Both the position numbers and the translations under genes were made by a program. Shown here in pieces: positions 2,464-28,791 of a DNA stretch of 64,000 bases. Position 1 is the first letter of the stretch; each line of letters starts with the position of its first letter. Below the pieces are notes generated by a model. The model saw only the letters and a list, made by a program, of their open reading frames with translations. It did not search any database and was not told the origin of the DNA. The DNA is taken from assembly GCA_022822725.1 (NCBI GenBank), contig JAJEAN010000007.1, forward strand, positions 562,382 to 626,381, in the 5' to 3' direction. This stretch comes from Candidatus Latescibacterota bacterium (GTDB lineage: Bacteria; JAAXHH01).

Positions 2464-2562
2464 CTACCCGCCTGCCAAACTGCCTACTGCCCGATTGCTA
2501 AACTGCCTTACTACCCGACTGCTAAACTGCCTTACTACCCGCCTGCCAAACTGCCCGACTAC
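2464..2562. repeat. degenerate ~24-bp tandem repeat array (~4 units, gctaaactgccttactacccgact-like) between convergent BCCT and TonB-receptor genes
   Basis: Read directly: ccgattgctaaactgccttactac / ccgactgctaaactgccttactac / ccgcctgccaaactgcccgactac, etc. Confidence 0.8.
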
Positions 2563-8602: not shown

Positions 8603-10942
8603 TCACCGCGGCGTCAGCGTGAGCCGATGCCCCGCGAGTGCTTCCACGGCCTCCCGGCTGAACGCCAGCGGAAGGTAATCGTCGTTCGCCCAGGTGTCCA
8701 GCAGGCTGCCGTAGTAGGGGCTTCCGGGCTGTCCCGACTGGCCCGGCGTGATGATGAAGACCGACCGGTCCCAGTCTTCCGTGTCCAGGATGTGCCGGAA
8801 GCTTACCGACGTGGCGGCGATGGTGCCGAAGCCGCCCGAACGCTCCACGGCCGGCAGGGAGAAGGCATCGGACAGGAGGTGGGTGAAGGGGCTCATCTGC
8901 AGCCGTCCGTACCGCCACTGCCCCCAGTCGTCGCCCAGTTCCGATTTGAGCCGGTCAACGGTCTTGCGGAGGCCGGCTTCCACGAGCGGCTGCCGTTCGT
9001 CTACCGGCGTCTCCGGGTCGTAGGCGGCGGCTTCGGCCTCGCCCCGCCACCGGTACCAGACCGCCGCCCCGGCGCTGTCCCGGTCCAGCACGCCGTTCCA
9101 GTCTGCTACCAGCGCACGGGCCCGTTCGACTTCCGCGTCCTCCGACGCCCAACCCTGAAATGCCGGGATGTCGGCCTCGGCCCGCAGCGAATAGGCGTCC
9201 AGTTGGATGCGCTGGTGGTCCTCGACGGAGTACTTGCGATTGGATTGCAGCAGTTGCTTCATGCGTTCGATCCGGGAGTATTCGACGCCTCGTGCGGAAT
9301 GGAACATGACCGGCCGGCCCGTATAGTCCGGCGGGTGGGAATCGTTATTGGCCGTCCCTACCCAGCCGCGCTGGGGATTGTACTCCCGGGGCAGGTCTTC
9401 CCGGAAGCCTTGCCACTCGAACCGCCCGTCGCCCGGGACCGGCAGCCGGCCGTTCCAGCCGTCGCGGTCCGGCGTGAGGGCCGAGACCTGGAAGGCGATG
9501 TTGCCCTCCACGTCGCCGAAGACCAGGTTGTGCGTGGGTACTTTCCAGAACATGGCCCGTTCGAAGAAGTCCTCCGCGCTCTCCGCCTGGGCCATGCGGA
9601 AGCATCCCAGGTACGGCGCGGTACCGGGTTCGTGGGTGATCGAACGTACGGCATAGACTACGCCGTTCTCAGGGTCTTCGTAAAACACCGGACCGTGCCG
9701 GCTGTACTTGAGCACGATCTCGCGGGGCTCCTCGCCTTTCACCGGGATCTCCTCCGTGATGACGCGCAGGGATTCCCAGCCGTCCCGCCACCGCACCATG
9801 TCGGGCTGGTCCGGGTGCAGTTCCTCCACGTACACGTCGTTCACGTCGACCCCGGCGAAGGTGAATCCCCAGGCGACGCGGTCGTTGTGTCCGGCGTTCA
9901 CGCCCACGAAGGGCGGCTCGCTGGCGCCGATCACGTTCCAGCCCGGGGCGTTCAGATGGGCGTAGTACCGCAGCGAGGGGTTCTCCAGGCGGCGGTGTGG
10001 GTCGTTGACGACCATGACCTGGCCCGTGATGGACAGGGCGCCGCTCACGGCCCAGTTGTTGCTGCCGATCTCGAGCAGTTGCTCTTCGGTGGGCGCCACG
10101 GCCTGGCGGTCCGCGGGTACCAGACCCGTGTAGGGTTCCACGAGTTCCAGCTGCGGCAACCGTCCGGGCACCAGGGGATCTCCCTCCCCTTTGCGCATGG
10201 CGGCTACAATGTCCTCGTGGACGATGTTCACGTCGAGGCCTTCCGGCACGACGAGGTCATCCCAGGGGAGCGGAGCGGCCCGGCGATTGGCCTCCTCGAC
10301 GCCGTGTTCCGCCACGGACCGGGCCAGCCGGATCTCGTCGCCCGCATCGTTCCCCGCGCTCGGGAAGAAGAGCCCGGTCCAGCGCCTCACTACTGTTTCC
10401 TTCGTCCACCGTCCGGGCTGGATGCCCGTGAGCTTGAATTCCACCGGAAGATTATCGGCGTGCGTGTCGATATAGGCGTTGACGCCGTTCGCGTAGGCCG
10501 TGAAGATGCGTTCGCCCTCGGCGTGGTAGCTGGTCCACTCCCGGTCGTCGAAGGGCCCGCGGTACATCATGAGCCGCGTGCGGGCGTCGTAGTCGAAGGC
10601 CTCGGGACCGAAAACCTCCGCGAGGCGGCCTTCCCGCCACCGGCGCCAAAGCTCCATCTGCCACAGGCGGTCCTGGGCCATCACGTAACCCTGGGCGAAA
10701 AAGAGATCGTCCGTGTTCTGCGCGTAGATATGCGGAATGCCGTGGCGGTCGCGGATCACCTCGACAGGCTCCTGCAGGCCGTCCAGCGTCAGCTCGCCCT
10801 CTATCGGTGAAAGGGATGCGCGGGCGAGGGACATGAGCTGTTCGTCGGGATCCACCGGTTCGATCTCCTCGCTGCAGCCCATGACCATCAAGGGAACAAC
10901 GAAAAGCACCGCGCACAGATAGATGAAGTGAGATACTGTCAT
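8603..10942 (-). CDS. penicillin acylase / acyl-homoserine-lactone acylase family Ntn-hydrolase
   Basis: Hallmark DRHGIPHIYA...DLFFAQGYVMAQDRLWQMEL motif; SNNWAVSG (putative beta-subunit N-terminal nucleophile Ser). Likely start at ATG 10942 (lipoprotein-type signal MTVSHFIYLCAVLFVVPLMVMGC, GAGGAG RBS upstream) rather than the ORF-track start 10978. Confidence 0.85.
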   Translation of the reverse strand: MTVSHFIYLCAVLFVVPLMVMGCSEEIEPVDPDEQLMSLARASLSPIEGELTLDGLQEPVEVIRDRHGIPHIYAQNTDDLFFAQGYVMAQDRLWQMELWRRWREGRLAEVFGPEAFDYDARTRLMMYRGPFDDREWTSYHAEGERIFTAYANGVNAYIDTHADNLPVEFKLTGIQPGRWTKETVVRRWTGLFFPSAGNDAGDEIRLARSVAEHGVEEANRRAAPLPWDDLVVPEGLDVNIVHEDIVAAMRKGEGDPLVPGRLPQLELVEPYTGLVPADRQAVAPTEEQLLEIGSNNWAVSGALSITGQVMVVNDPHRRLENPSLRYYAHLNAPGWNVIGASEPPFVGVNAGHNDRVAWGFTFAGVDVNDVYVEELHPDQPDMVRWRDGWESLRVITEEIPVKGEEPREIVLKYSRHGPVFYEDPENGVVYAVRSITHEPGTAPYLGCFRMAQAESAEDFFERAMFWKVPTHNLVFGDVEGNIAFQVSALTPDRDGWNGRLPVPGDGRFEWQGFREDLPREYNPQRGWVGTANNDSHPPDYTGRPVMFHSARGVEYSRIERMKQLLQSNRKYSVEDHQRIQLDAYSLRAEADIPAFQGWASEDAEVERARALVADWNGVLDRDSAGAAVWYRWRGEAEAAAYDPETPVDERQPLVEAGLRKTVDRLKSELGDDWGQWRYGRLQMSPFTHLLSDAFSLPAVERSGGFGTIAATSVSFRHILDTEDWDRSVFIITPGQSGQPGSPYYGSLLDTWANDDYLPLAFSREAVEALAGHRLTLTPR

Positions 10943-11102
10943 GAATGGCTCCTCTTGCTCTCCACTGCCGGATTGCACGATTAAATAGCACGCGCAGCGC
11001 AGCGTTTCGTCCGTTTTGTACTGTCGGAGAATCGTCCGTTATGGTCGAATATGGTCGAATATCATCCTACCATCCGGATGTGTGGTTGTCAAGCAACCCA
11101 GG

Positions 11103-11218
11103 GCCGGATCAGTCCCGCAACCGCGCAGGCGGCCTGGGGGGCCGGGCGACCTGGGCGGCCTGAACATCCCGATGGATGGCGCAGCGGTCGCAACCTGCCT
11201 GCCGGATCAGTCCCGCAA
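11103..11218. repeat. perfect 18-bp direct repeat pair (gccggatcagtcccgcaa at 11103-11120 and 11201-11218); second copy contains the stop codon of the downstream oxidoreductase gene
   Basis: Direct reading; a 10-bp tandem (atggtcgaat x2) lies at 11041-11060. Confidence 0.8.
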
Positions 11219-12163
11219 TTCCGCCCGGATGCGATCGGCCAGCTTCATCGTCTCGACGGCCTCGTCCAGTCCCGCCGCGGGCAGGTCCACGGGACGGTCT
11301 TCCTTGATGCAGTCGACCAGGAAGCGGGCCTGTTCGGCCGTGCCGGCGGACTCGACCGTGTCGAACGCCTCTTCTTTCCCGTCGCGCTGCACCACGGCGC
11401 TCTTCACGCCTTCGAGGTAGGCCGAACAGTCCCTGCCGTGGATCTCGTATCGTTCCAGGCGGGCGTCCGTCGTGAAATTGGCCGTGAGCTGGGCCACGCA
11501 CCCGTTCTCGAACCGGATGAGCGCCGCGTATACATCGACGAACCGGGAATTCGCCCGTCGCGCGACGGCGTGCAGTTCGGCGATGGGGGAACTGCCGGCC
11601 AGGGAACGGGTCAGGTCGATGGCGTGTATCGGCGTTTCGTAGATGAACCGGTCCAGCAGGTGATCGGGGTAGCCCCGTGCGGCCAGATTCGTCATGCTCT
11701 TGTGGAATTCCGCCACGATCTGTGTGATGGGTCCCCGCTCCTCGATCATGCGGCGCGCCTTGCAGATCAGCGAGTGGAAGCGCCGGTTCCATCCGACCAG
11801 CACCCTGGCGCCCGATGCGTTGGCCGCGTCGCGGAGTGCCTCGGCTTCGGCGCCCGAAAGTCCGGGCGGTTTTTCAATGAGCGTGTGGACACCGGCCTGT
11901 ATGACGGGGAGGGCGCACTTGCCGTTGAGGTGGGCCGGTGTCGCGACTACCGCCAGGTCCAGTTCCTCTTTAGACAGCATTTCATCGATGTCGCCATACT
12001 GGTGTGGGACGGCGTTTTCGGCGGCGACCCGGTCGCGCAATTCCTTCACCGGATCGCAAACGGCTACGAACTTGAGGTCGTCGAAGGTCGACATGGCCTC
12101 GATATGGCCACGACCCCGGCCGCCGCACCCGATCAGGGCGGCTTTCAGATCTGTGTCGGGCAT
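11207..12163 (-). CDS. Gfo/Idh/MocA family oxidoreductase
   Basis: N-terminal Rossmann motif ALIGCGGRGRGH; EKP motif (LIEKPPGLS); 318 aa. Confidence 0.85.
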   Translation of the reverse strand: MPDTDLKAALIGCGGRGRGHIEAMSTFDDLKFVAVCDPVKELRDRVAAENAVPHQYGDIDEMLSKEELDLAVVATPAHLNGKCALPVIQAGVHTLIEKPPGLSGAEAEALRDAANASGARVLVGWNRRFHSLICKARRMIEERGPITQIVAEFHKSMTNLAARGYPDHLLDRFIYETPIHAIDLTRSLAGSSPIAELHAVARRANSRFVDVYAALIRFENGCVAQLTANFTTDARLERYEIHGRDCSAYLEGVKSAVVQRDGKEEAFDTVESAGTAEQARFLVDCIKEDRPVDLPAAGLDEAVETMKLADRIRAELRD

Positions 12164-12262
12164 TTCTGTTGCTCCGGTTTTGGCGGTGATTTGCTTGACG
12201 CATGCAATGTATGGTCATTTCTTCTGCAAGTAAACATGCCATTATCGAACGGTGATTCCTGC

Positions 12263-12766
12263 ATGCTGGATCTCGGTTTTTTCAGGCAGAACGGTTACGT
12301 CAATCTCGGCCAGGTTTTTGATGGCGAGGAACTGAGTCGTTTCGTCGACCTGTACGACCAGGACCGGTCGAAAATGGGCTGTTTCTGGCATCCCATTTCC
12401 AATCACGGGCACCAGACCCTGAATTGTGAACCCCTGATCTCCTCGCCGGAGATCGACGGGCTGATCCGCCATCCCAGCCTGATCGAACCGATCGAGACCA
12501 TCTTCGAAGGCCCCAGTTGTCTCGGGGAAGTCTGCCTGCGCCACATGGCCCCGCGTGACGACAATCCGGAGGAGATCTGGCACCGGGACCGGCCTCATTC
12601 GACGGAACGGCCCTACCGGTGCGGCTACCTGCAGATGATGCTCTACCTGACCGACGTGCACGAAGGTACGCACTGTTTTTCTATTTCTCCCGAGCCCTGC
12701 GAAGGTCCGGTGCTCGATACAAAGGAAACCGGGATAACGTGGTTGACTAAAGCCTTTGTTAACTGA
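12263..12766 (+). CDS. phytanoyl-CoA dioxygenase (PhyH) family protein, short form
   Basis: Only the 3' third of the spurious 571-aa ORF 11051..12766 is convincing: ATG at 12263, WHRD...H iron-binding-like motifs (EIWHRDRPH, HEGTHCF). Translationally close to the downstream dehydrogenase. Confidence 0.5.
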   Translation: MLDLGFFRQNGYVNLGQVFDGEELSRFVDLYDQDRSKMGCFWHPISNHGHQTLNCEPLISSPEIDGLIRHPSLIEPIETIFEGPSCLGEVCLRHMAPRDDNPEEIWHRDRPHSTERPYRCGYLQMMLYLTDVHEGTHCFSISPEPCEGPVLDTKETGITWLTKAFVN

Positions 12767-12783
12767 CACAGATCGGAGAGCGA

Positions 12784-13839
12784 ATGTCGAACAACCGACC
12801 GCAAGTACTCATCGCCTGCAGTGAACGCGTCCGCAATGGCTATCTGCCGCCGAAGGAACTGACCCGCCTCGAGACGTTTGCCGACTGGACGTGGTTCCAC
12901 TCCGAGGGCGGCGGCATTTACGATACCAGCACGGATCCCGAGACCACGGTGCAACTGGCCGGCGAAATGGCCGGGGTGGATGCGCTGGTCGTCTGCCATG
13001 GTGCGCCGAGGATCGACGCCGAGATCCTGGATGCCGCGCCCCGCCTTAAATTTGTCGGCGAACTGGAAGGCGACCGTTTCGCCGCACGGCTGGATCTTGA
13101 AACGATGTGGGCCCGGGGTATCCGCACCGTAGATACGACGAATGGTTCCACTTATCCGGTAGCCGAATGGGCCCTGGCGCTTACGCTGATCTCCATGCGC
13201 AATGCCGGCGCGCTGTTTCGCCGCATCATCGAACGCAATACCCAGGACCGCAGTCTCATCCAGCCCATGGCGGGCATACTGACCGGCAAGCGGGTGGGCT
13301 TGATCGGCGGCGGCCACATGGGGCGGCGGCTGATGAAACTGTTGCGCCCCTTCGAGGTGGAACTATGGGTCCACGATCCTTACCTGCCGCAGGAGCTGCC
13401 CGAGGCGCTGGGCTTCATCCAGACGTCGCTGGAGAACGTGCTGTCGAAGTGCGACGCGATCATCTGCGTGGCGCCGCTCACGCCGAAGACCCGGGGCATG
13501 ATTGGAAAGCGCGAGCTGGATCTCATCCGGTCGGGGTCGGTATTCGTGAATGTGTCGCGTGGAGCCATCGTAGATTCCGCGGCCCTGATCGAACGGCTCA
13601 AGCGCAATGATATCGCCGCGGGGCTGGAAGTTTTCGACCCGGAGCCCATCCCCGAGGACAGCGAAATCATCGATCTGCCCAATGTTTTCCTGACGCCCCA
13701 CTTTTCCGGACGCACGGGCGAGGAGTATCCGCACTTCTTCCGCTTCATGGTCGATGAACTGGAACGGTTCTTCTCCGGCCACGAGACATGGTTCAACCTG
13801 ACGCCGCGATCGAAGGCCAACCGCGAGGGACAACCGTGA
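12784..13839 (+). CDS. D-isomer-specific 2-hydroxyacid dehydrogenase family (NAD-binding)
   Basis: GLIGGGHMGRRL Rossmann motif; catalytic-domain organisation typical of the family; 351 aa. Confidence 0.85.
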   Translation: MSNNRPQVLIACSERVRNGYLPPKELTRLETFADWTWFHSEGGGIYDTSTDPETTVQLAGEMAGVDALVVCHGAPRIDAEILDAAPRLKFVGELEGDRFAARLDLETMWARGIRTVDTTNGSTYPVAEWALALTLISMRNAGALFRRIIERNTQDRSLIQPMAGILTGKRVGLIGGGHMGRRLMKLLRPFEVELWVHDPYLPQELPEALGFIQTSLENVLSKCDAIICVAPLTPKTRGMIGKRELDLIRSGSVFVNVSRGAIVDSAALIERLKRNDIAAGLEVFDPEPIPEDSEIIDLPNVFLTPHFSGRTGEEYPHFFRFMVDELERFFSGHETWFNLTPRSKANREGQP

Positions 13840-15263
13840 CACGCCCCAACCTGCTTTACATTTTCACCGACCAGCAGCGCGCCGATACGCTGAGCTGCTA
13901 CGGCAATCACCAGATCGAGACGCCGGCGCTCAACGGACTCGCCGAGGACAGCTTCGTCTTCGAGAACGCCTACGTGAGCCAGCCCGTATGCAGTCCGGCG
14001 CGGGCCACCATGCTGACCGGTCTCTGGCCGCACACGGCGGGGGTGCCGTCCTGCAACGTACCCCTCGCCGCCGACAAGCCGACCATCGCCGAGATGCTTC
14101 CCAGGGAATACGATACGGCCTTCATGGGGAAATGGCACCTGGGAGACGAGATCTTTCCCCAGCACGGGTTCAAGACCTGGGTGGGCACGGAAGACCAGTA
14201 TCGACGGGGCTACTCGAAATCGGAGCGGCTGGCCGAAGTCAGCGACTATCATCACTTCCTGGTGGATAAGGGACACAACCCGGATACCGAACTGCTGGGT
14301 CAGAAGGTCTTCTCAAGGCACTATGCAGCATCCCTGCCCGAGGAATGCACCAAGGCGTGGTACCTGGGCGAGCGGGCGTCGGAGTATATTCGCGAGCAAG
14401 GCGACGAACCATTTGCCCTCTGCGTCAGCTACCTCGAGCCTCATCCCCCGCACACCGGTCCGTTAAACGACTACTTCGACCCGGACAGCCTGCCCACCGG
14501 ACCGGCTTTCATGCGGCAACCGCCCTTTGACGCACCGCTGCTCATCCGCCTGATGGCCGCATTTTACATGCAGTCGGAGAACTACGGGCTGGACCTGCGT
14601 ACCGAGACGGGCTGGCGGGCGCTGATGGCGCGGTACTGGGGCAACATCACCCTGGTGGATCGCTCGGTGGGGAGGATCCTGAAGGCCCTGGAGGAGAGCG
14701 GAAAGGCCGATGACACCATCGTCGTGTTCACCTCGGACCATGGAGAACTGATGGGCGATCACGGCATCCTGGGCAAGACGCTCATGTACGAGGAATCGAT
14801 AAAAGTGCCGATGTTGCTCCGCGCGCCTATGCTGGATCATCCGTCGCGGAGGATCAGCGGCCGGTTCAGCCACATCGACCTGGTACCGACGTTGATGGAC
14901 TTACTCGGTCTCGAACGGCCCGACCGGTTACAGGGCCGAAGCCGCGTACCTGTGCTGCAAGGGCACGATAACCTGGATAACGACGATGTGTTCGTAGAGT
15001 GGAGCGGAGAGGACGGCCACGCCCGGGCCGGTCTCGGTGAAGCCGAACCGAACCAGAGCATGGTCCATCAGTATCGGACGGTCGTTACGGCGGACGGTTG
15101 GAAACTCAACCTGTATGGGAAGGGGCAGGGAGAGCTATACGATTTGAATGATGATCCGTTTGAGTTGGAGAACCTGTATCATCATGATGGGCAACGGGCG
15201 CGTATCGGGGAGTTGAGGGAAAGAATTCGTGCTTGGCAGGAAGAGACGGGGGATCAGCCATGA
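13836..15263 (+). CDS. sulfatase (formylglycine-dependent arylsulfatase family)
   Basis: LLYIFTDQQRAD and CSPARATMLTG (C-x-P-x-R formylglycine motif) at N-terminus. GTG start overlapping upstream stop (GTGA); ATGA overlap with downstream gene, so the three genes are translationally coupled. Confidence 0.85.
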   Translation: MTRPNLLYIFTDQQRADTLSCYGNHQIETPALNGLAEDSFVFENAYVSQPVCSPARATMLTGLWPHTAGVPSCNVPLAADKPTIAEMLPREYDTAFMGKWHLGDEIFPQHGFKTWVGTEDQYRRGYSKSERLAEVSDYHHFLVDKGHNPDTELLGQKVFSRHYAASLPEECTKAWYLGERASEYIREQGDEPFALCVSYLEPHPPHTGPLNDYFDPDSLPTGPAFMRQPPFDAPLLIRLMAAFYMQSENYGLDLRTETGWRALMARYWGNITLVDRSVGRILKALEESGKADDTIVVFTSDHGELMGDHGILGKTLMYEESIKVPMLLRAPMLDHPSRRISGRFSHIDLVPTLMDLLGLERPDRLQGRSRVPVLQGHDNLDNDDVFVEWSGEDGHARAGLGEAEPNQSMVHQYRTVVTADGWKLNLYGKGQGELYDLNDDPFELENLYHHDGQRARIGELRERIRAWQEETGDQP

Positions 15264-16363
15264 AAACTGGAAAAGTCGCGGTCTTCACTCAGGCGCAATC
15301 CCCGATGGAGATGCGTGAGTATCCCGTACCATCGGTTACGGCGGACGACATGCTCGTCCGGATCCGAATGGCGAACATCTGCGGCTCCGATCTGCACTTC
15401 TGGCGCGGGCACGGCCCCAAGATCACGAGCGGCATCCCCCAGGTGCTTGGACATGAAATGATCGGAACGATTGAAGCCATGGGGCGCAATGTGACGACGG
15501 ACAGTACGGGACAGCCGCTGTCCGAAGGGGATCGCATCGTCTATTCCTACTACAAACCGTGTCAACAATGCTGGATGTGCCTCAACGGCATGCCGGGATG
15601 CCCCGACCGTTATCGAGACTGGCTGGGCGTCTCAAGCGATCAGCCGCCCCACTTTCACGGCGCGTACGGTGAATACTACTACATGAAACGCGGCCACTGG
15701 GTCTTCAAGGTCCCCAATGACCTTTCGGACGCGCTCGTGTCTCCGATCAACTGCGCTTTGTCTGAAGTGATATACGGTCTCAATCAGATCGGCATCACCC
15801 TGGGCGACACGGTGGTCATTCAGGGGGCAGGCGGCCTTGGACTCTATGCGACCGCAGTAGCAAGGGAGATGGGGGCTGGAAGGATCATCGTGCTCGACCG
15901 GCTGCCGGCGCGCCTCGCACTCGCCCGGGAATTCGGCGCCGACGAGACGCTAAACGTCGATGAAATTGACATGAAAGCACGCATTGAGTTCGTACTCGAC
16001 CACACGGGCGGGGTCGGCGCCGACCTGGTCGCCGAATTCGTAGGATCGCCGCGCGTACTCGCCGAAGGCATCGATATGCTCAGGTGGGGCGGCCGTTATC
16101 TCTGGATCGGTAACATCAACCTGGGATTTCCCACCGAGATCGATCCGGGCAACATCGTCCGGTGCAGCAAGGCGATCCGCGGCGTAATCGTCTACGAACC
16201 CTGGGTCATCCCGCGCGCCCTCGAATTCCTGAGTCGTACGCGGGACAGGTATCCGTTCCACAAGATCATCTCCGATACCTTCTCATTCAGTGAAATCAAC
16301 GAGGCATTCGTATACGCGGACAAAGGTTCTGCTATCCGGGTTGGACTGGAATTCGACACTTAG
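15260..16363 (+). CDS. zinc-binding alcohol dehydrogenase (MDR) family oxidoreductase
   Basis: GHEMIGTIEAMG zinc-ligand region, structural-Zn Cys cluster (CQQCWMCLNGMPGC), GAGGLG NAD motif. Confidence 0.85.
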   Translation: MKTGKVAVFTQAQSPMEMREYPVPSVTADDMLVRIRMANICGSDLHFWRGHGPKITSGIPQVLGHEMIGTIEAMGRNVTTDSTGQPLSEGDRIVYSYYKPCQQCWMCLNGMPGCPDRYRDWLGVSSDQPPHFHGAYGEYYYMKRGHWVFKVPNDLSDALVSPINCALSEVIYGLNQIGITLGDTVVIQGAGGLGLYATAVAREMGAGRIIVLDRLPARLALAREFGADETLNVDEIDMKARIEFVLDHTGGVGADLVAEFVGSPRVLAEGIDMLRWGGRYLWIGNINLGFPTEIDPGNIVRCSKAIRGVIVYEPWVIPRALEFLSRTRDRYPFHKIISDTFSFSEINEAFVYADKGSAIRVGLEFDT

Positions 16364-16679
16364 ACTCAGTAGACTTAGCTCTTAACGAGAATCCGCGCAA
16401 GGAATCTCCTTTTTGACGACGAAGGTAACCGGGTATTCCAAGATCACGGTGTTCTTGTTGCGATTTTTGACTCGCACGCAATCTAGTGTAAGAATGATAA
16501 ACTTGTCTGACTTCATATTACCTTTGGCAGGCGGATGCGGTAGACGTGAAAGTTTTGCATGAGCAACAAGAGATTTGTGTTTATAAGGATTGGTCGATTG
16601 AGTACATATATGGCGATTAAATCGTAGCAAATCATGCCGACACAAATGTTGAACATTCATAGCAGAAGGCGTTGAATCG

Positions 16680-16886
16680 ATGCGACAAGTTGTTCTTTAT
16701 CCTGGAGAGGACGGCTTTTGGATTGCAGAATGTCCAAGTCTGGCAGGTTGCATAAGTCAGGGCGAATCTCGGCAAGCGGCGATTGAAAGAATCAAGGAGG
16801 CTATCGAAGCATACGTCGAGGCTTTGGAAGACGATGACCTTCCAGTTCCTGAGGACAAATTCGAGGCCTTGGTCGTAGCCGTATGA
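16680..16886 (+). CDS. hicB: type II toxin-antitoxin system HicB family antitoxin (UPF0150)
   Basis: 68 aa. MRQVVLYPGEDGFWIAECPSLAGCISQGESRQAAIERIKEAIEAYVEAL matches the HicB consensus closely. Confidence 0.85.
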   Translation: MRQVVLYPGEDGFWIAECPSLAGCISQGESRQAAIERIKEAIEAYVEALEDDDLPVPEDKFEALVVAV

Positions 16887-16945
16887 ATGTTCTGCCCGCA
16901 ATTTCAGGGCGCGAATGTGTCAAAGCACTTGCCAAAGTAAAGTAA
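16883..16945 (+). pseudogene. truncated HicA-family toxin remnant (20 codons: MNVLPAISGRECVKALAKVK then stop)
   Basis: ATGA-overlapping ORF after hicB whose N-terminus matches the HicA N-terminal consensus (LP-x-SGRE-VK-L) but terminates after 20 aa. No continuation recognisable in other frames; the PhyH gene begins 34 bp later. Confidence 0.5.
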
Positions 16946-16978
16946 CGGGAATCAGTCACTGTAAAGGACCCACCCCCC

Positions 16979-17785
16979 ATGGCCATGACCGAAGAAGAAC
17001 GCTTCCGATTCGACCTTTCCGGTTTTCTCGTCCGTCCAGCGATACTCACCGCGGAAGAAGTCAAAGAAATCCGCGAGCAGATATACCTGATCAAGCACGA
17101 TCCTGAATCGCTCCCACCGGAACACCGGGACGTGCCCGGGGGACCGTCGAGCGTCCTGATCGATCATCCGGCCGTCGTGGACGTCATCGAGGAGATCATA
17201 AGCCCGGATTTCCGGCTGGAGAACTGTTCCTGCGTGTGGCGCAAGAAGGGGGAAGAGCACGGGGAACTGCACGGCGGCGGTCCCAGGCAGATCGATCCGA
17301 TCTTCGGGTACCGGGTACAGCGCGAACAGATCTACGCCGGCATGGTGCGGGTGATCTTCGAGTTTACGGATATCAGGATGGAAGACCAGAGCACGCACTT
17401 CGTGGTGGGGAGCCACAAGGCAAATTTCCCTATGCATCCCGACCACATGTCCCTGGAGGAGGGCAAGCGTAGCGAATTCCTCGTGACCTACGCCTGTCCT
17501 GCGGGCAGCGCAGTCTTCTTCACCGAGAACACATGCCACGCGGGTCCCAAGTGGAACCGGGACGAGCCTCGCGTGACCGTGCTCAACGCCTATTCACACC
17601 TGGCCACCCACTGGCACCGATTGAAAACGCCCCCCGCAGTCATAGCCGGCCTTCCCCGCGAGAAGCAGGTTTACTTCCGCGAACCTTGGATCGCCGATTT
17701 CCGAACGAGTCCGGCTACCAGGAACACGGCGGAGCGGTTCATGGGCAATGACGAACCGCCGGTCAATGCCGACACGAAGCCCTGA
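16979..17785 (+). CDS. phytanoyl-CoA dioxygenase (PhyH) family Fe(II)/2-oxoglutarate-dependent oxygenase
   Basis: 268 aa; PhyH-like length and His/Asp-containing core (HFVVGSH...H). Confidence 0.75.
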   Translation: MAMTEEERFRFDLSGFLVRPAILTAEEVKEIREQIYLIKHDPESLPPEHRDVPGGPSSVLIDHPAVVDVIEEIISPDFRLENCSCVWRKKGEEHGELHGGGPRQIDPIFGYRVQREQIYAGMVRVIFEFTDIRMEDQSTHFVVGSHKANFPMHPDHMSLEEGKRSEFLVTYACPAGSAVFFTENTCHAGPKWNRDEPRVTVLNAYSHLATHWHRLKTPPAVIAGLPREKQVYFREPWIADFRTSPATRNTAERFMGNDEPPVNADTKP

Positions 17786-17885
17786 TTACATTTCGTGCGA
17801 TCAGGTAAGGATCCGGCCTGGTAGGGGAAAGGTTGGGTTGGGTGCCGAGGCCGAACACGGCCAACTGAAGTCAAGGTCCCACAGG

Positions 17886-17929
17886 CGCGGTCGCACGGTC
17901 ACGGCCGCACGGTCACGGCCGCACGATGG
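17886..17929. repeat. 14-bp tandem repeat (cgcacggtcacggc x2.7) spanning the stop codon of the enolase-superfamily gene
   Basis: Direct reading. Confidence 0.8.
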
Positions 17930-19130
17930 AGCCATCCGCCCTGCGATCTTCAGCGGCGTACAATGGCCTGGCTGCTGCGTCAGCGTCGATGAGTTTTGCG
18001 GCCGCATCTTCGTCGATATCCAGCCCTAATCCAGGATTGTCGTTGGCGTAGAGGTGCCCGTCCTGCAGCACGCAGGCGCCGGGGAACGCCGCGTATTCCG
18101 CCTCGCTGAAGGTATTCTCCTCCTGGATCCCGAAACTCCAGCTCGACATATCCAGATGGACCGCTGCGGCCTGGTTGACCGGGTCGTTGTCGCCCCCTTC
18201 CTGCCAGGCGGTGTTGATGCCGAAGGACTCGCACAGGTTCGCGATCTTCCGGCACGGCGTGATGCCGCCCGCCTTGGATACGCGCACGCGGACGTAGTCG
18301 ATGAGCCGCTCGGTGATGAGAGGCGTCCATTCGTGGGGATTGACGAAGAGTTCGCCCATGGCCTGGGGCGTCGTGCACTGTTCCCTGATCAGGCGGTACC
18401 ACTGCACCTGCTCTGGGGGCAGTACGTCCTCCAGGAAGAAAAGCCGGTAGGGTTCGAGGCGCTTGGACAGGGTCACGGCGGACTGGGGCCGCAGGTGTTC
18501 GTGGACGTCGTGGGTCAGCTTGGGGCCGAATCCGAGTTTCGAACGCAGATACTCGAACATGTTTGGGATGGCCTCGATGTAGGCCTCGTCGTCGAAGACC
18601 TGGTCGGCGGGCCATGCGTTAGCCGGTCGGGGCGCATCCTCCGAAGGAATGAATCCCCCGCCGCCGTAACCGCCCAGCTGGCAGCGCACCACGGGGAAAC
18701 CTTCCTCAAGGTAGGCCTGTACCGCTTCCAGCAGGGCCTCCGGCGTGCTGCCGCCCGCGTGGGCGTAGCAAGGGACGGCGCTTCGGCATGCACCGCCCAG
18801 GAGCTGGTAGACGGGCATCCCGGCTTCCTTGCCCTTAATGTCCCACAGGGCCATGTCGATCCCGGAAAGGGCCGTGTTGGTGATGGCGCCGTTGCGCCAG
18901 TATCCGCTCGTGTAGAAGGTCTGCCAGATGTCCTCAATACGGCTGACGTCCCGCCCGATCAGCCTGGGGGCCAGCAAAGACTCGACGGCTTCGATGACGG
19001 CGCGCTGGTGGTAGTGGTCGCTCGCCGAACCGATGCCGTACAGCCCGGGTTGATTCGTTTCGATCTTGACGATGCCCCAGGTGCCGTTCGATCGCGTCCG
19101 GATGCACTTCACGCCGGTGATGGTCGTCAC
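17913..19130 (-). CDS. enolase-superfamily dehydratase, mandelate racemase/muconate lactonizing enzyme family (D-mannonate dehydratase ManD / RspA-like)
   Basis: 405 aa. N-terminal VKIETNQPGLYGIGSAS... and DMALWDIKGK motif typical of ManD/RspA subgroup. Confidence 0.85.
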   Translation of the reverse strand: MTTITGVKCIRTRSNGTWGIVKIETNQPGLYGIGSASDHYHQRAVIEAVESLLAPRLIGRDVSRIEDIWQTFYTSGYWRNGAITNTALSGIDMALWDIKGKEAGMPVYQLLGGACRSAVPCYAHAGGSTPEALLEAVQAYLEEGFPVVRCQLGGYGGGGFIPSEDAPRPANAWPADQVFDDEAYIEAIPNMFEYLRSKLGFGPKLTHDVHEHLRPQSAVTLSKRLEPYRLFFLEDVLPPEQVQWYRLIREQCTTPQAMGELFVNPHEWTPLITERLIDYVRVRVSKAGGITPCRKIANLCESFGINTAWQEGGDNDPVNQAAAVHLDMSSWSFGIQEENTFSEAEYAAFPGACVLQDGHLYANDNPGLGLDIDEDAAAKLIDADAAARPLYAAEDRRADGSIVRP

Positions 19131-19141
19131 GGTCCGCTCCT

Positions 19142-19936
19142 TTATTCGGTCGTAATTCGCTCACCGTCTTCGATAAAAGGTTCGGCGTTGCTCCAGATCC
19201 GCGAACCGTCCTCGGTGTAGATCGGTTCGGCGGAGTACTGGGTCAGGTAGACGCGGCGCCAGCCGTCGGAGGTGTTCGGGCTGCTGCGGTGGAAGGACAC
19301 GCTGGAGAATACGGCGATGCTCCCGGCCGGCGCGACCACGGGCACGCCGGGATCGTCCCCGAAGTATCCGATCTTGTCGTTCGAACCTGCTTCGACGGTG
19401 TGTTCCAACCGGTGCCGGGTCCCCGCCCGTGAAAAGGGCAGGATATAGACCGTGCCGTTCTCATCGGAGACGTCGTCGAGGGCGGCCCAGCAACTCAGGT
19501 AGGGCCGGTGGTCGAAGCCCACGTAGCCGGAGTCCTGGTGCCAGCCGAACTTCATGCCGACTTCGGGGCCCTTGACCACGAACTGCTCGTGGAAGAGAAA
19601 GGCCGTGTCGCCGAGGGTCGCGCGGCAGATTTCGGCCATGAGCTCGCTGAATATGAATGGACGCAGGCCTGGATTGTCCCGGTGGCGGTTCGAAATAAAC
19701 AACCGCCGGCCCTTGTGGGTTATGCCCTTGGCCGCGACCTCGGCCTGATCCATCTTCGCTTCTTCCTCGGCCGTCAACCGGTCGCACTCGCCGCGTATGT
19801 GCGCCAGCTGCGCGTCATCCAGGGCGGCCTCGAGGATGAAGTATCCCTCTTCCCGGTACTGCTCCTTTTGCGCGTCGCTGATCTTTAATGGGCTCTCGCC
19901 GGTTTCCTGTCCACTGCTGTTTGCTGTAAAGCTCAT
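19142..19936 (-). CDS. phytanoyl-CoA dioxygenase (PhyH) family Fe(II)/2-oxoglutarate-dependent oxygenase
   Basis: 264 aa. WHQDSGY iron-binding motif plus distal His (SFHRSSPN) characteristic of PhyH family. Confidence 0.8.
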   Translation of the reverse strand: MSFTANSSGQETGESPLKISDAQKEQYREEGYFILEAALDDAQLAHIRGECDRLTAEEEAKMDQAEVAAKGITHKGRRLFISNRHRDNPGLRPFIFSELMAEICRATLGDTAFLFHEQFVVKGPEVGMKFGWHQDSGYVGFDHRPYLSCWAALDDVSDENGTVYILPFSRAGTRHRLEHTVEAGSNDKIGYFGDDPGVPVVAPAGSIAVFSSVSFHRSSPNTSDGWRRVYLTQYSAEPIYTEDGSRIWSNAEPFIEDGERITTE

Positions 19937-19938
19937 TG

Positions 19939-20697
19939 TTATCCTCGTCCTATGTAGGGCATGGTGGTCGCCATGACCGTGATGAACTGTACGTTTGCGT
20001 CAAGGGGCAGTCCCGCCATGAAGACGACGGCGTCGGCCACGTTCTTCACGTGCATCCTCGCCTCGGCCAACAGGTCGCCCGTGGGCTGCAGGACGCCCTC
20101 CTGCATCCGCTCCGTCATCTCCGTGGCCGCATTGCCGATGTCGATCTGGCCGCAGGCGATGTTATACTTCCGGCCATCCAGGGAAGTCGAACGCGTCAAA
20201 CCGGTTACGGCATGTTTCGTAGCCGTGTACGGCGCCGAGTTCGGCCGGGGCACATGGGCGGAGACCGAACCGTTGTTGATGATCCGGCCGCCCTGCGGAT
20301 CCTGGTCCTTCATGATCCCGAAGGCCTCCTTCGTGCAGAGGAAGGAACCCGTCAGGTTGACGTCCACCACGGTCTGCCACTGTTCGGCCGTCAGCTCCTC
20401 GAGAAGCACCGCGGGGGCGCCGGTTCCGGCGTTGTTGAAGAGCAGGTCCAGCCGTCCGTGAACCGCCTTTGTTTCGGCGAAGAGGTGCTCGACCTGTGAT
20501 GCGACCCCCACGTCCGTGGGGACGATAAGCAGTCGGTCCGCGGCGTCGCCGGCCTCGGCCACGGTCGACTCCAGGGCTTCTTTCCGTCGGCCGGCCAGGA
20601 CCACGCGGTAGCCGTCTTCCAGCAACGCCAGGGAACAGGCCTTGCCGATGCCCGAACCCGCTCCGGTAACGACGGCGACCTTGGTGGAGTCACTCAT
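19939..20697 (-). CDS. SDR family oxidoreductase (short-chain dehydrogenase/reductase)
   Basis: [14 protein letters not shown] cofactor motif, NNAG, YxxxK (YTATKHAV). Confidence 0.9.
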
Positions 20698-20973
20698 TTT
20701 ACGCTCCTTAATCCTGATTCAGTTGTAGATACATTGTATACACGCAAGCCGCTGGTCAGGACCATCACGGGGCTGTCTACCGATCTGACCGAAACGCCGA
20801 TTGCCGATCCCGTTTACTGATCCCGTTTACAGATCCCGGTATCCATACGCCCTGCAACTAACAAATCCATTCAGCTCTCTGCAATCCTTTTTCGCGAGTA
20901 CAGCGTCGCGGCGCCATGAGGGGCGTCGTCCATCCCAAATTCAGATCCGCAGCGCCATGCGGGGCACCATTCA

Positions 20974-22047
20974 TCACGAATACGGGTCTGCGGCGTCGCG
21001 CAACGCGTCTCCGAGGAAGTTGAAGGCGATGACGACGACCAGCACCGGCGCGGCGGGGAATAGAAGCCAGGGATGGTTGAGCAGCACCGTGACGCGCTGC
21101 GCTTCCTCGAGCAGCACGCCCCAGCTGGTCATGGGGGGCCGGATGCCCAGTCCCAGGAAGCTCAGGGCCGTTTCTCCCAGGATCATGCCCGGGATGGCCA
21201 GCGTGGCCACGACGATGATGTGGCTGTAGCAGCCGGGCAGCAGGTGGCGCGAGATGATGTACCAGTGCCCCGCGCCGGCGGAACGTGCCGCCGTCGTGTA
21301 GTCCTGCTCGCGGAAGACGAGGACCTTGCCCCGGACTTCGCGGGCCAGGCCGCCCCAGCTGATGATGGACAGGATGATCGTGATGCCCAGGTAGGTCTCG
21401 ATACTTGTCCATGCGGCGGGCAGCGCCGCCCCGAGCGCCATCCACAGCGGTATCGGCGGAAAGGAGGCCAGGATCTCGACGACACGCTGAAGGGCGTGGT
21501 CGATCCAGCCGCCGAAGTAGCCGGAGAGCGTGCCGAGGACGGATCCGAGGATCAGGCTGAGGAAGACGCCGATGATCCCCACGGTAAGCGAAACGCGGGC
21601 GCCGTGGAAGATGCGCGAGAGCAGGTCGCGGCCCATGCGGTCCGTCCCGAGCAGGTACATGGGACCTTCCGAATGGACCAGCCGGAAGTCGCCGCTTGCG
21701 TCCCTCGACAGGAACCGGACCGGGTAACGCCGGCTCTGGTCCGTCTCGTACGCCAGTTCGAGGGTGACCGGGTTCTGCGTGGAGGTAAGGCCGTAGACGT
21801 AGAACCCCTCTGACCAGTCGAAATGCAGGTCCTGGGGCGGAAGGTACCGGACCTGGATCCGGATTTCGTTATGGTCGTAGGGGGAGAAATACCCGGCGAA
21901 GATCGCCACGAGGTAAAACAGTCCCAGGACGACTCCCGCCGCGATGCCCATCCGGTTCTTCCGGAACCGCCGCCAGATCAGCGCACGGTAGCTGAGATAG
22001 CCCGCATCCTGGACCGTTTCCATCGGGTCGACCGTGGTCGTGGTCAT
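20974..22047 (-). CDS. peptide/nickel ABC transporter permease (DppC/OppC-like)
   Basis: 6-TM permease with EAA-loop region; last gene of minus-strand operon ATPase-ATPase-SBP-permease-permease. Confidence 0.85.
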   Translation of the reverse strand: MTTTTVDPMETVQDAGYLSYRALIWRRFRKNRMGIAAGVVLGLFYLVAIFAGYFSPYDHNEIRIQVRYLPPQDLHFDWSEGFYVYGLTSTQNPVTLELAYETDQSRRYPVRFLSRDASGDFRLVHSEGPMYLLGTDRMGRDLLSRIFHGARVSLTVGIIGVFLSLILGSVLGTLSGYFGGWIDHALQRVVEILASFPPIPLWMALGAALPAAWTSIETYLGITIILSIISWGGLAREVRGKVLVFREQDYTTAARSAGAGHWYIISRHLLPGCYSHIIVVATLAIPGMILGETALSFLGLGIRPPMTSWGVLLEEAQRVTVLLNHPWLLFPAAPVLVVVIAFNFLGDALRDAADPYS

Positions 22048-22101
22048 GGGTTTGCTCCGCGTTCTACTCGAACGCCTCCATCTGCTTTCGAGGCCGCAAG
22101 G

Positions 22102-23088
22102 CTACTCATACCGTATCCTCGGGTCCGCCCAGGCCAGCGCGATGTCGGCCAGGATGTTGCCGATGATCAGGAGCAGGCTGAACATCATCAGCAGGGTACC
22201 GGCCAGGTAGATGTCCTCTGCGACCAGGGCCCGCAGCAGCAACGGCCCCACGGTGGGCAGGCCCAGGACGATCGCCACGATCGTGGCCCCGGAGAGGATG
22301 TTCGGCAGGCTCATGCCCAGGATCGTGATCAGCGGGTTGATGGCGATACGCGCCGCGTGCTTGATGACGACGACGGACTCCTTGAGGCCCTTGGCCCGGG
22401 CCGTCTGTACGAAGGGCTGGCCGAGAACGTCCAGGAGATTGCCGCGCATGATGCGCATCAGGCCGGCCGTCCCGTTGATGCCCACCACGATGACCGGTAT
22501 CCAGAGGTGCTTCAGGAAGTCGACGAGCTTGTCCCACGTCCAGGGCGCGCCTTCGTACTCGCTTGAGAAGAGGCCGAACAGGGGAATCCTGTAGATCTCG
22601 AACACGAAGACCAGGAGGGCCAGGGCCAGGAGGAATCCCGGCATGGACATGCCGATGAAGCTGATGAAAGACAGCACGTTGTCGGACAGGCGGTACTGGT
22701 GGGTAGCCGAATAGATGCCGATGGGGATCGCCACGGCGTAGGTGAAAAGCAGGGCGCCCAGGGCGATGAGCACGGTGAAAGCGAGCCGGTCCCAGATCAG
22801 CGAGTTGACTTCCTGCTCGTATTCGAAGGATTCGCCGAAATCACCCACGACGAACCCCGAGATCCAGTTCACGTACTGCCTCCACATGGGCTGGTCCAGG
22901 CCGTATCGTTCCCGCAGCTCGTCGATGCGGGCGATGGAGCTGCTGTCGCCGTACATCTCCTCCAGTTCCTGGATCTTGCGGTCCAGGAAGTCGCCCTCGG
23001 GCAACTGGATGATGACGAAGCCGATCATGGAAATGGCAAGGAGGGTCGGGATGGCGAGAAGGCAGCGCTGTATGACGTAGGTGATCAT
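22102..23088 (-). CDS. peptide/nickel ABC transporter permease (DppB/OppB-like)
   Basis: MITYVIQRCLLAIPTLLAISMIGFVIIQLPEGDF N-terminus typical of DppB/OppB. Confidence 0.85.
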   Translation of the reverse strand: MITYVIQRCLLAIPTLLAISMIGFVIIQLPEGDFLDRKIQELEEMYGDSSSIARIDELRERYGLDQPMWRQYVNWISGFVVGDFGESFEYEQEVNSLIWDRLAFTVLIALGALLFTYAVAIPIGIYSATHQYRLSDNVLSFISFIGMSMPGFLLALALLVFVFEIYRIPLFGLFSSEYEGAPWTWDKLVDFLKHLWIPVIVVGINGTAGLMRIMRGNLLDVLGQPFVQTARAKGLKESVVVIKHAARIAINPLITILGMSLPNILSGATIVAIVLGLPTVGPLLLRALVAEDIYLAGTLLMMFSLLLIIGNILADIALAWADPRIRYE

Positions 23089-23153
23089 GGTTTAGACAAA
23101 GGCTACACCGCGGTCCGTGAACTGCCCGGTATGCGGTTTAAGTGATCATCCCT

Positions 23154-25232: not shown

Positions 25233-25252
25233 CAGTGCTGTGTCATTCTGGC

Positions 25253-27257: not shown

Positions 27258-27388
27258 ACAGGGTCATTTTAACGCTCCTTTCGAAGGTCTGTCAAGGTGA
27301 TACCGCCTCCTGCCGCAACGGGAATATTGAAGAAACGTGACCGGAAGTTTGTAGGAAGTAGGACTATAAACACTCACCACGTAATCGT

Positions 27389-27418
27389 ATCTACAGTGCT
27401 GAGGATCTACAGTGCTGA
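27389..27418. promoter_or_regulatory. direct repeat atctacagtgctga x2 (period 16) ~30 bp upstream of the aminotransferase start; candidate regulator-binding site in a divergent promoter region
   Basis: Direct reading; GAAGGAG RBS at 27436-27442 precedes ATG 27449. Confidence 0.3.
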
Positions 27419-27448
27419 ATTTACCCAGGTTACCTGAAGGAGTCGAAT

Positions 27449-28699: not shown

Positions 28700-28725
28700 G
28701 TCCTGAGTGATAGCGACGTAACATA

Positions 28726-28761
28726 AAAAGTCCAGCGGTGCGTTTTCGCCGCTGGACTTTT
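28726..28761. terminator. bidirectional rho-independent terminator (13-bp perfect stem aaaagtccagcgg / ccgctggactttt, 10-nt loop, U-runs on both strands) between convergent genes
   Basis: Direct reading of the inverted repeat. Confidence 0.6.
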
Positions 28762-28791
28762 GTGTTAATGGGTTTCAGGCTTGTTGGGCTT

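Follow-up and report, generated by a model that had tools for sequence, protein, structure and literature searches.

A candidate sugar-acid catabolic locus with a pair of Fe(II)/2-oxoglutarate oxygenases in a Candidatus Latescibacterota genome

What might a bacterium degrade with PhyH-family oxygenases, a formylglycine sulfatase, a mannonate-dehydratase-like (ManD-type) enzyme and several dehydrogenases that are encoded side by side next to a peptide-type importer? The question is raised by a cluster at positions 11207–20697 of a 64 000 nucleotide stretch of Candidatus Latescibacterota bacterium DNA (assembly GCA_022822725.1, contig JAJEAN010000007.1, positions 562 382–626 381), referred to below as the window. 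A first-pass annotation had proposed an uncharacterised pathway for a sulfated or hydroxylated organic osmolyte or a sugar-acid-like substrate. Because of the differences between homologous loci, we divide the region into a conserved module B and a clade-specific, internally variable module A. The cluster most likely represents an uncharacterised variant of sugar-acid catabolism, whose unusual feature is a pair of Fe(II)/2-oxoglutarate (Fe/2OG) oxygenases, one of them of the HygX type. The initial observation was largely right and its interpretation partly so: the findings agree with a sugar acid and not with an osmolyte, and PhyH, sulfatase and ManD do not make up a fixed set.

The gene map is based on a listing of open reading frames (ORFs) and on gene calling from the G+C content of third codon positions (GC3); the public calls on the 950-kb source scaffold concur with it. 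Forty-seven ORFs were called in the window, and their families were assigned by Pfam and NCBIfam profile searches. These confirmed every family previously named, and all of the genes concerned are present at, or close to, the places first assigned to them. Module B consists of a Dpp-type ABC importer, a short-chain dehydrogenase/reductase (SDR), the oxygenase PhyH264, a ManD-type dehydratase and the convergent oxygenase PhyH268. Module A consists of a PhyH remnant, a 2-hydroxyacid dehydrogenase (2-HADH), a predicted cytoplasmic sulfatase with the motif CSPAR and a zinc-dependent dehydrogenase (Zn-ADH). The genes of both modules, with those around and between them, are as follows.

11207–12163, minus strand: Gfo/Idh/MocA NAD(P) oxidoreductase (Gfo), 318 aa; Pfam GFO_IDH_MocA and C-terminal domains.
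12263–12766, plus strand: PhyH-like ORF (PhyH-A remnant), 167 aa; Pfam PhyH 17.3 bits, below the cut-off of 22.
12784–13839, plus strand: D-isomer-specific 2-HADH, 351 aa; Pfam 2-Hacid_dh_C, 148 bits.
13836–15263, plus strand: type I (formylglycine) sulfatase, 475 aa; Pfam Sulfatase PF00884, 182.7 bits, and SGSH_C.
15260–16363, plus strand: Zn-dependent medium-chain dehydrogenase (Zn-ADH), 367 aa; Pfam ADH_N and ADH_zinc_N.
16680–16886, plus strand: HicB-like antitoxin ORF, 68 aa; Pfam HicB_lk_antitox, 31.4 bits against a cut-off of 27.
16883–16945, plus strand: ORF of 20 aa overlapping the stop of the HicB-like ORF; no family match.
16979–17785, plus strand: PhyH268, Fe(II)/2OG oxygenase; Pfam PhyH, 30.5 bits.
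17913–19130, minus strand: ManD-subgroup dehydratase of the enolase superfamily, 405 aa; PF02746 (MR_MLE_N) 76.6 bits, PF13378 (MR_MLE_C) 131.9 bits.
19142–19936, minus strand: PhyH264, canonical Fe(II)/2OG oxygenase; Pfam PhyH PF05721, 94.6 bits.
19939–20697, minus strand: SDR of the Ltn3D family; matches 9X6I (E 3.3e-80) and 4DYV (E 4e-95).
20974–27257, minus strand: Dpp/Opp-type ABC importer, five genes, complete; Pfam ABC_tran with oligo_HPY, SBP_bac_5, BPD_transp_1 with OppC_N.
20974–22047 and 22102–23088, minus strand: importer permeases; BPD_transp_1, one with OppC_N.
23154–25160, minus strand: importer substrate-binding protein (SBP), 668 aa; SBP_bac_5.
25253–26251 and 26253–27257, minus strand: importer ATPases; ABC_tran with oligo_HPY.
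27449–28699, plus strand: HisC/PtaA-like class I/II aminotransferase; Pfam Aminotran_1_2.

The window was compared with homologous loci from other metagenome-assembled genomes (MAGs) and metagenomes, designated by L-numbers (L003, L041, etc.). Six loci from Tara Oceans and other metagenomes (L041 and L044–L048) retain module B, with identities to the window of 64–71% for PhyH264, 74–81% for the dehydratase and 72–79% for PhyH268. Four of them (L041, L044, L046 and L047) have the same arrangement, in which the aminotransferase gene is followed by the divergent ABC–SDR–PhyH264–ManD genes and a convergent PhyH268; L045 is a short contig that covers part of module B only, and L048 carries the module B core with different flanks and without the SDR. 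The gap between the permease and SDR genes of L041 is only 45 bp, so that importer and enzymes form one operon there. All six loci are devoid of the block composed of PhyH-A, 2-HADH, sulfatase and Zn-ADH, and in three of these (L041, L046 and L047) a Gfo orthologue 62–64% identical to that of the window directly follows PhyH268. In the window, Gfo is divergent from module A. The notion of PhyH, sulfatase and ManD as one conserved set is therefore not upheld, since these marine-metagenome relatives keep ABC–SDR–PhyH–ManD–PhyH without the whole sulfatase block; the neighbourhood conservation proposed as a check on that notion holds for the ManD/PhyH operon, and the sulfatase block is not part of the conserved unit.

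Module A is restricted to a single clade of closely related genomes. When genomes were scanned with the sulfatase, copies of 75–94% identity turned up in uncultured MAGs only, labelled Gemmatimonadota or Candidatus Latescibacterota, and the look of the isolate codes alone suggests that several of the MAGs carrying module A are sponge- or coral-hosted. In all 13 compared relatives that have both Gfo and PhyH268, the sulfatase block is situated between them. The synteny among close relatives, established by tblastn with all of the window proteins, also spans unrelated flanks (penicillin amidase, STAS and RibD_C), so that conservation within this clade is, by itself, of little informative value. 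Module A also varies inside this clade. Six relatives (L012, L013, L021, L023, L025 and L026) have no Zn-ADH; about 9.5 kb separate the sulfatase from PhyH268 in L012, and in four others (L011, L015, L016 and L024) about 9 kb following the Zn-ADH gave no match to any window gene. In L011 and L015 this unmatched stretch opens with a gene for 842–856 aa, and the L015 copy has type I restriction (HsdR) domains. In the window, the junction of modules A and B is occupied by an AT-rich spacer of 616 bp between Zn-ADH and PhyH268 (16364–16978) that carries the HicB-like ORF; the G+C content dips to 0.559 at 16001–18000. The HicB-like ORF and the ORF of 20 aa are an insertion and not pathway genes. 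The latter matched no family, and we take it to be a possible truncated remnant of a HicA toxin.

The sulfatase gene itself is not equally preserved everywhere: its match covers 69% of the query in L025 (10447–11424) and 81% in L026 (10293–11417), and in L026 it is 64% identical to that of the window against 83–91% for the flanking genes. It may be decaying in some relatives, such as these two.

Three PhyH dioxygenases had first been counted. The short PhyH-like ORF covers Pfam profile positions 1–147 of 213; it keeps H107-R-D and stops before the distal histidine and the 2OG-binding arginine. The same gene is about 245 aa long in L008, L017 and L021, where it contains VLHAAT and RKTVQIYY, covers the full profile and scores 35.3 bits with Pfam. 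About 487 bp of L008 are replaced by about 40 bp in the window at 12728–12767 (blastn; the deletion is read from the window contig only, as L002 ends short of this gene). As judged from these alignments, the short PhyH is a deletion-truncated remnant of a third paralogue and is predicted to be inactivated here. With this gene truncated, the genome has two intact PhyH oxygenases, PhyH264 and PhyH268, and not three. Pairwise identities among the three PhyH paralogues of the window are below 25%. Owing to the PhyH remnant, the spacer insertion and other corrections of the map, the 9.5-kb region is not one uninterrupted unit. The gene content, the conservation of active-site residues and the modular pattern of conservation and loss are observed directly. 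For the class of substrate, we infer a sugar acid or a related acidic carbohydrate from three independent homology results, those of the SDR, the ManD-type dehydratase and the SBP.

The SDR aligns end to end (272 bits) with 9X6I, the NADP-preferring L-threonate 3-dehydrogenase of Paracoccus litorisediminis (PlLtn3D), which oxidizes L-threonate, D-gluconate, D-xylonate, D-galactonate and L-arabinonate at the 3-OH (Watanabe et al., J Biol Chem 2026, PMC12994016). The functional residues of PlLtn3D are an Arg–Arg NADP site, an N-S-Y-K tetrad and Ser138, Arg143, Asn181, Met186, Glu204 and Met238 (PMC12994016). All 12 cofactor, catalytic and carboxylate-/hydroxyl-binding residues are kept in the window SDR (R37 and R38; N114, S144, Y157 and K161; S146, R151, N189, M194, E212 and M246), which is accordingly annotated here as a putative aldonate 3-dehydrogenase of the Ltn3D type. 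It resembles the SDR of the Ltn3D funnel cluster of P. litorisediminis (PMC12994016) in these residues, and both clusters contain other sugar-acid enzymes and come from marine bacteria; the window SDR differs in that its gene, located behind a Dpp-type importer, shares an operon with those of a PhyH oxygenase and a ManD dehydratase.

The closest solved structures to the dehydratase are 4IHC (E 3e-123), 3T6C and 3TW9, with E-values of about 1e-122. It has the same length as these members of the ManD subgroup, the same Mg ligands, the same Tyr–Arg base and the same His acid: R149, Y155, D208, H210, E234 and E260 were found at the expected spacing by motif position. The corresponding reference residues are D210, E236, E262, Y159, R147 and H212 in the numbering of NaManD. 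The score is 372 bits with the ManD model against 82 bits with that of hydroxyproline dehydratase/epimerase, and the enzyme is assigned by homology to the ManD subgroup, not to the curated ManD equivalog. We take 4IHC, 3T6C and 3TW9 to be low-efficiency D-gluconate/D-mannonate dehydratases. Like many low-efficiency members, the window enzyme is encoded outside a classical UxaC/UxuB glucuronate operon. It is flanked by two Fe/2OG oxygenases, an arrangement that is not known for any characterised ManD. Members of its subfamily share 70–75% identity although their MAGs bear different labels (Latescibacteria, Zixibacteria, Chloroflexi, Poribacteria and Rhodospirillaceae).

The importer had been described as a peptide transporter. 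Its Dpp/Opp architecture is indeed complete; its SBP, however, is closest to oligosaccharide-binding proteins and not to peptide binders. The best full-length matches are a Thermotoga maritima protein (5IPW, E 7e-80), SPH1118 (E 3e-64) and the alpha-galactoside binder AgpA, whereas peptide and nickel binders gave fragmentary matches only and the scores with the DppA, Opp4A and NikA models are far below cut-off. SPH1118 (7VEQ and others) and T. maritima OppA (5IPW) are family-5 SBPs of about 610–630 aa, whose alignments with the window SBP (220–272 bits) are full-length. Both are annotated as peptide binders, and an acidic oligosaccharide ligand has been shown experimentally for SPH1118 of Sphingomonas sp. 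A1: its crystal complex holds unsaturated trigalacturonate, and from thermal shift assays with yeast extract and tryptone its authors conclude that it binds pectin and not oligopeptides (PMC9314435). SPH1118 also mediates chemotaxis, and the window SBP differs from it by a possible lipobox and an unusual N-terminus made of repeats. At the 5' end of its gene, an 18-bp tandem repeat in 8.2 copies (25018–25164) encodes a reiterated GMLA(R/C)xG; the cysteine motif VLACAGG just downstream of the repeat may be the lipobox.

The aminotransferase gene is divergent from the ABC operon and is conserved in this position in L041, L044, L046 and L047. The protein scores below cut-off with all of the NCBIfam models PRK09105, hisC and PtaA. 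It carries a motif of the twin-arginine translocation (Tat) type, SRRGFMKG, and the L044 orthologue has a twin-arginine motif too, which suggests a periplasmic pyridoxal-phosphate enzyme.

The PhyH paralogues fall outside the already characterised subfamilies, a check that had been set for them at the outset. In PhyH264, the facial triad (H133-Q-D135 and H216) and the 2OG-binding arginine (R227/R228) are present and invariant in 31 homologues. The AlphaFold2 (AF2) model of its double-stranded beta-helix has a mean local confidence (pLDDT) of 91.4, and its fold neighbours are small-molecule- and sugar-tailoring hydroxylases of about 20% identity, including proline hydroxylase H11, GriE, EctD and MysH. 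A general link between PhyH264 and ManD was considered and rejected: of 75 loci with PhyH264 homologues from beyond the lineage, a dehydratase gene adjoins that of the PhyH protein in the Chthonomonas-like L056 only, and most neighbours are unrelated.

PhyH268 lacks the carboxylate of the H-x-D/E motif and hence the canonical facial triad. It has instead H98-G-G100 and E183-x3-H187, corresponding to the variant iron site of the HygX type, H-x-G … E-x3-H (PMC13374393). R124 aligns with Lys137 of HygX, and H98, G100, R124, E183 and H187 are invariant across 31 homologues. HygX is the sole solved sequence relative (E 1.6e-8), and the top 14 fold matches of the AF2 model (pLDDT 81) are all HygX. 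On these grounds PhyH268 is predicted to possess a HygX-type metal site. An H-x-G site might also be that of a halogenase; we discarded this possibility as the relocated Glu183-x3-His187 matches the oxygenase HygX. PhyH268 shares with the hygromycin B orthoester-forming HygX (4XC9, 4XCA, 4XCB, 4ZPI) the iron site, the basic residue and the stretch GSHKANFP. HygX attacks the anomeric C–H of a sugar. The two proteins are only 22–24% identical, and the context of PhyH268 is that of catabolism and transport, not of aminoglycoside biosynthesis: no orthosomycin or aminoglycoside biosynthetic genes were found in the window or at the PhyH268 homologue loci. The PhyH268 family is very widespread: highly conserved members, also as arrays of tandem paralogues, occur in metagenomes and MAGs of marine and other environmental origin, and the family is 68–82% identical among those labelled Chloroflexi, Latescibacteria, Poribacteria and Zixibacteria. 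The locus is unusual in encoding an Fe/2OG oxygenase of a type so far known from antibiotic biosynthesis only.

One such array is found in a genome of 6.6 Mb (L124:4293–9530), where three consecutive genes of the PhyH268 family, each for 268 aa and 72–76% identical to the window protein, show that the HygX-type oxygenase has been amplified in tandem. PhyH paralogues of 296 and 245 aa are encoded beside them.

In module A, the translational coupling of 2-HADH, sulfatase and Zn-ADH reported earlier can be read in the sequence as GTGA and ATGA overlaps. The formylglycine sulfatase is likewise corroborated by its motif, C52-S-P-A-R-A-T-M-L-T-G; the protein starts directly with the catalytic domain, without a signal peptide, and is predicted to be cytoplasmic. 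Its best solved matches (E 1e-43 to 1e-35) are spread over several specificities, namely GlcNAc-6-sulfatase, the promiscuous arylsulfatase/phosphonate monoester hydrolase (PMH) group and mucin sulfatase. It has no close characterised relative (about 30% identity at best) and falls below cut-off with the arylsulfatase, choline-sulfatase and PehA models. No formylglycine-generating enzyme or radical-SAM maturase domain was found among the 47 window ORFs. The S1 sulfatases of marine and gut polysaccharide utilization loci, for example the GlcNAc-6-sulfatase BT4656 (5G2V) and those for carrageenan and mucin, are similar in the Sulfatase and SGSH_C domains, in C-x-P-x-R and in being the best solved matches; the window sulfatase differs in being predicted cytoplasmic, without signal peptide, coupled to two dehydrogenases and without SusC/D genes. 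The closest solved structures to the 2-HADH are formate dehydrogenase, phosphoglycerate dehydrogenase, 2-ketogluconate reductase and glyoxylate reductase, all at E of about 1e-33, and the best NCBIfam match of the Zn-ADH is TIGR03366, with 229 bits against a cut-off of 328. The NCBIfam matches of Gfo to sugar and inositol dehydrogenases are weak and all far below cut-off.

Homologues of the cluster genes are found in various carbohydrate contexts. L044, from a free-living relative, has a signal-less GH84 beta-N-acetylglucosaminidase gene (2794–3876) between the two ATPase genes of the ABC operon, a xylose-isomerase-like TIM-barrel gene of the epimerase type (11186–11980) between PhyH264 and ManD, an RraA-like aldolase gene and one more PhyH gene. 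In L022, GH2-like and GH109 genes flank a sulfatase orthologue of 75% identity. A PhyH268 homologue and a PhyH protein of 289 aa are encoded between two large heparinase II/III-like lyase genes in L126 (928–13679), together with a polysaccharide deacetylase, an Amidohydro_2 protein, a Zn-ADH, a Gfo/Idh/MocA protein and an aldo-keto reductase. In L007 the gene order is lactonase–NHL–Gfo–PhyH268 homologue, with dihydrodipicolinate synthase and a sugar ABC system nearby, and in L003 a sugar ABC system and a sulfatase are near the PhyH268 homologue. The PhyH264 homologues of L043 and L056 stand between an AraC gene and an IlvD/Edd sugar-acid dehydratase gene. The dehydratase subfamily occurs in L127 as PIG-L–ManD, with sulfatase, Gfo, RraA and major facilitator superfamily (MFS) genes nearby, and in L128 as GntR–SBP–GH99-like–ManD, with 2-HADH, ThuA and Gfo nearby. 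The sulfatases found near ManD or PhyH268 homologues elsewhere are not orthologues of the window sulfatase: that of L127 is 34% identical and that of L003 falls below threshold.

Upstream of the cluster, a BCCT transporter and a TonB receptor had been regarded as its neighbours.

835–2415: BCCT transporter.
2559–5528: TonB-dependent receptor.
8603–10978, minus strand: penicillin-amidase/Ntn-acylase.

Both the transporter and the receptor exist, but five unrelated genes (methyltransferase, STAS, RibD_C, a hypothetical protein and penicillin amidase) separate them from the cluster. The penicillin-amidase gene adjoins Gfo in the sulfatase-carrying relatives and in L041 and L047; in the latter two it is followed by an aldo-keto reductase gene that is absent from the window. 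No riboswitch or leader was matched in an Rfam scan of 10500–29000 (E up to 0.1), and a promoter and terminator scan did not rise above shuffled controls. Elsewhere (34461–48051 and 56265–58160) the window encodes three additional paralogues of Gfo/Idh/MocA, along with a DUF2961 protein, an MFS transporter, a TIM barrel of the xylose-isomerase-like kind and, at 36977–40217, a second family-5 SBP with a permease. The genome is rich in orphan sugar-oxidoreductase genes.

The explanation that we favour, tentatively and at somewhat less than even confidence, is that of a composite locus for the catabolism of an acidic carbohydrate taken up from outside, and not of one indivisible PhyH–sulfatase–ManD pathway. 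The module B importer, with its SBP of the SPH1118/T. maritima OppA type, would take up an anionic sugar compound. In the cytoplasm, the Ltn3D-type SDR would oxidize C3 of a 2-hydroxy aldonic acid with NADP+, the ManD-subgroup dehydratase would carry out a 2,3-dehydration to a 2-keto-3-deoxy acid, and Gfo probably supplies or interconverts sugar-acid intermediates. PhyH264 and PhyH268 would contribute an oxidative tailoring step, which could be the removal of a blocking substituent or the oxidation of a sugar C–H; we know of no characterised sugar-acid pathway with an Fe/2OG step of this kind. The sulfatase and coupled dehydrogenases of module A would extend the pathway to a sulfated substrate, for example fragments of sulfated host or algal glycans. 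We infer the order of the steps, the chemistry of the oxygenases and the functional link between the modules.

Several points weigh against this explanation. The dehydratase scores below the cut-offs of the ManD equivalog NF043051 (371.7 against 550) and of the PRK15072 subfamily NF011654 (361.4 against 430), and the ManD and Ltn3D assignments are predictions from residue conservation only. Neither a glycoside hydrolase or lyase, nor a 2-keto-3-deoxygluconate (KDG) kinase or aldolase, nor a regulator is encoded in the window cluster; the entry (glycoside cleavage) and exit (kinase, aldolase) steps are therefore missing there. The domain matches of the 47 window ORFs do not suggest 3OtnK or 3OtnC either, although DUF1537 and class II aldolase were not specifically searched. 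Homologues of PhyH264 of 60% identity or less are mostly found in unrelated contexts, with a divergent AraC regulator as the commonest neighbour. Much of the conservation among close relatives could simply reflect shared ancestry, modules A and B are linked by adjacency only, and an amino compound would also be compatible with the Tat-exported transaminase and the Dpp-type architecture.

An alternative is that the region merely juxtaposes two or three units unrelated to one another (the sulfatase/2-HADH/Zn-ADH operon, the ABC–SDR–PhyH–ManD operon, and PhyH268 and Gfo as stand-alone genes), the first acting on one small sulfated substrate and the second on another. Module A is missing from some relatives that keep module B (L041 and L044–L048), the two are split by the 9–9.5 kb of unmatched DNA (with the HsdR-like gene in L015) or by the HicB-like cassette of the window, the sulfatase orthologue of L022 has a different GH2/GH109 context and PhyH268 homologues are found alone in many contexts. 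We nevertheless consider it rather unlikely, given the constant position of the sulfatase block between Gfo and PhyH268 in the 13 relatives, the recurrence of the ManD subfamily near sulfatase, Gfo and 2-HADH genes in other phyla and the presence of a PhyH268 homologue 2.5 kb from a sulfatase in Chloroflexi TSY. Catabolism of a peptide, amino acid or osmolyte, in which a nitrogenous solute is taken up by the Dpp-type importer, hydroxylated by PhyH in the manner of ectoine, proline or leucine hydroxylases and finished by the transaminase and dehydrogenases, is distinctly unlikely. The importer has the Dpp/Opp architecture with oligo_HPY ATPases, the HisC/PtaA-like transaminase is conserved beside the operon, a penicillin-amidase-type acylase is conserved nearby, and H11, GriE, EctD and MysH are among the fold neighbours of PhyH264. 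Against this, the nearest characterised relative of the SBP binds pectin oligosaccharides and not oligopeptides according to its authors, the dehydratase belongs squarely to the ManD subgroup and the SDR keeps the residues of Ltn3D that bind the carboxylate and the C2-OH. The ectoine-hydroxylase or osmolyte part of the original substrate proposal finds no support, as the EctD model TIGR02408 gives 35.5 bits against a cut-off of 336.5, over the N-terminal part only, and the BCCT gene is unlinked; the sugar-acid part is supported by the SDR residues, the ManD catalytic residues and the relationship of the SBP to SPH1118.

Two further readings seem highly improbable. Catabolism of a phosphonate or phosphonate ester would make the sulfatase PehA/PMH-like, the PhyH protein PhnY-like and the Zn-ADH an HpnZ. 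Partial likeness is seen in the TIGR03366 score of the Zn-ADH, in 48.5 bits for PhyH264 with PhnY*, in 197.7 bits for the sulfatase with PehA and in matches of the latter to solved PMHs (E 1e-35 to 1e-37). We rejected this reading because none of the cut-offs (328, 500 for PhnY* and 900 for PehA) is nearly reached and the window has no gene for PhnZ or an HD domain, PhnX, PhnA, PhnW or a carbon–phosphorus (C–P) lyase; moreover, six relatives do without the Zn-ADH. The best matches of the two PhyH proteins in sequence or fold (HygX, EvdO2 and SnoK/SnoN) evoke the tailoring of secondary-metabolite sugars, as in orthosomycin- or aminoglycoside-like biosynthesis, which we regard as scarcely credible here. 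The identity to these tailoring enzymes is only about 20–24%, the genes sit behind an importer, the window encodes no glycosyltransferases, sugar-nucleotide enzymes, polyketide or nonribosomal peptide synthetases, resistance proteins or exporters, and PhyH268 homologues occur in lyase, lactonase and sugar-ABC loci.

Within the acidic-carbohydrate explanation, a more speculative idea, to which we give only a small chance, is that PhyH268 and PhyH264 catalyse an O2-dependent, hydrolase-independent step of intracellular glycan catabolism. If an imported glycoside were hydroxylated at its anomeric carbon or at one that bears a substituent, the aglycone or a sulfate, methyl or amino group would be released, and an aldonolactone or keto-sugar acid would be left for lactonases, the Ltn3D-type dehydrogenase and the ManD dehydratase. 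Such a step would account for an oligosaccharide-type importer and aldonate enzymes without a glycoside hydrolase in the window cluster, for homologues beside lactonases and sugar-acid dehydratases of two unrelated folds, and for a PhyH268 family that is about 70% identical across differently labelled phyla and amplified in tandem.

We found no description of this cluster in the literature on PhyH and sulfatase in sponge symbionts. To our knowledge, many ManD-subgroup dehydratases and nearly all environmental PhyH proteins lack a known physiological substrate. In the window, a single importer is followed by a compact operon for a ManD-type enzyme, a dehydrogenase of the newly defined aldonate 3-dehydrogenase type and two oxygenases, so that the ligand of the importer's SBP could point to the functions of four orphan families together. 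Should the HygX-type oxygenase prove catabolic, bacterial carbohydrate degradation would gain an oxygen-dependent reaction. Provided that the host association is real, the sulfatase add-on would be a testable case of a host-associated lineage adapting a free-living pathway to sulfated host glycans.

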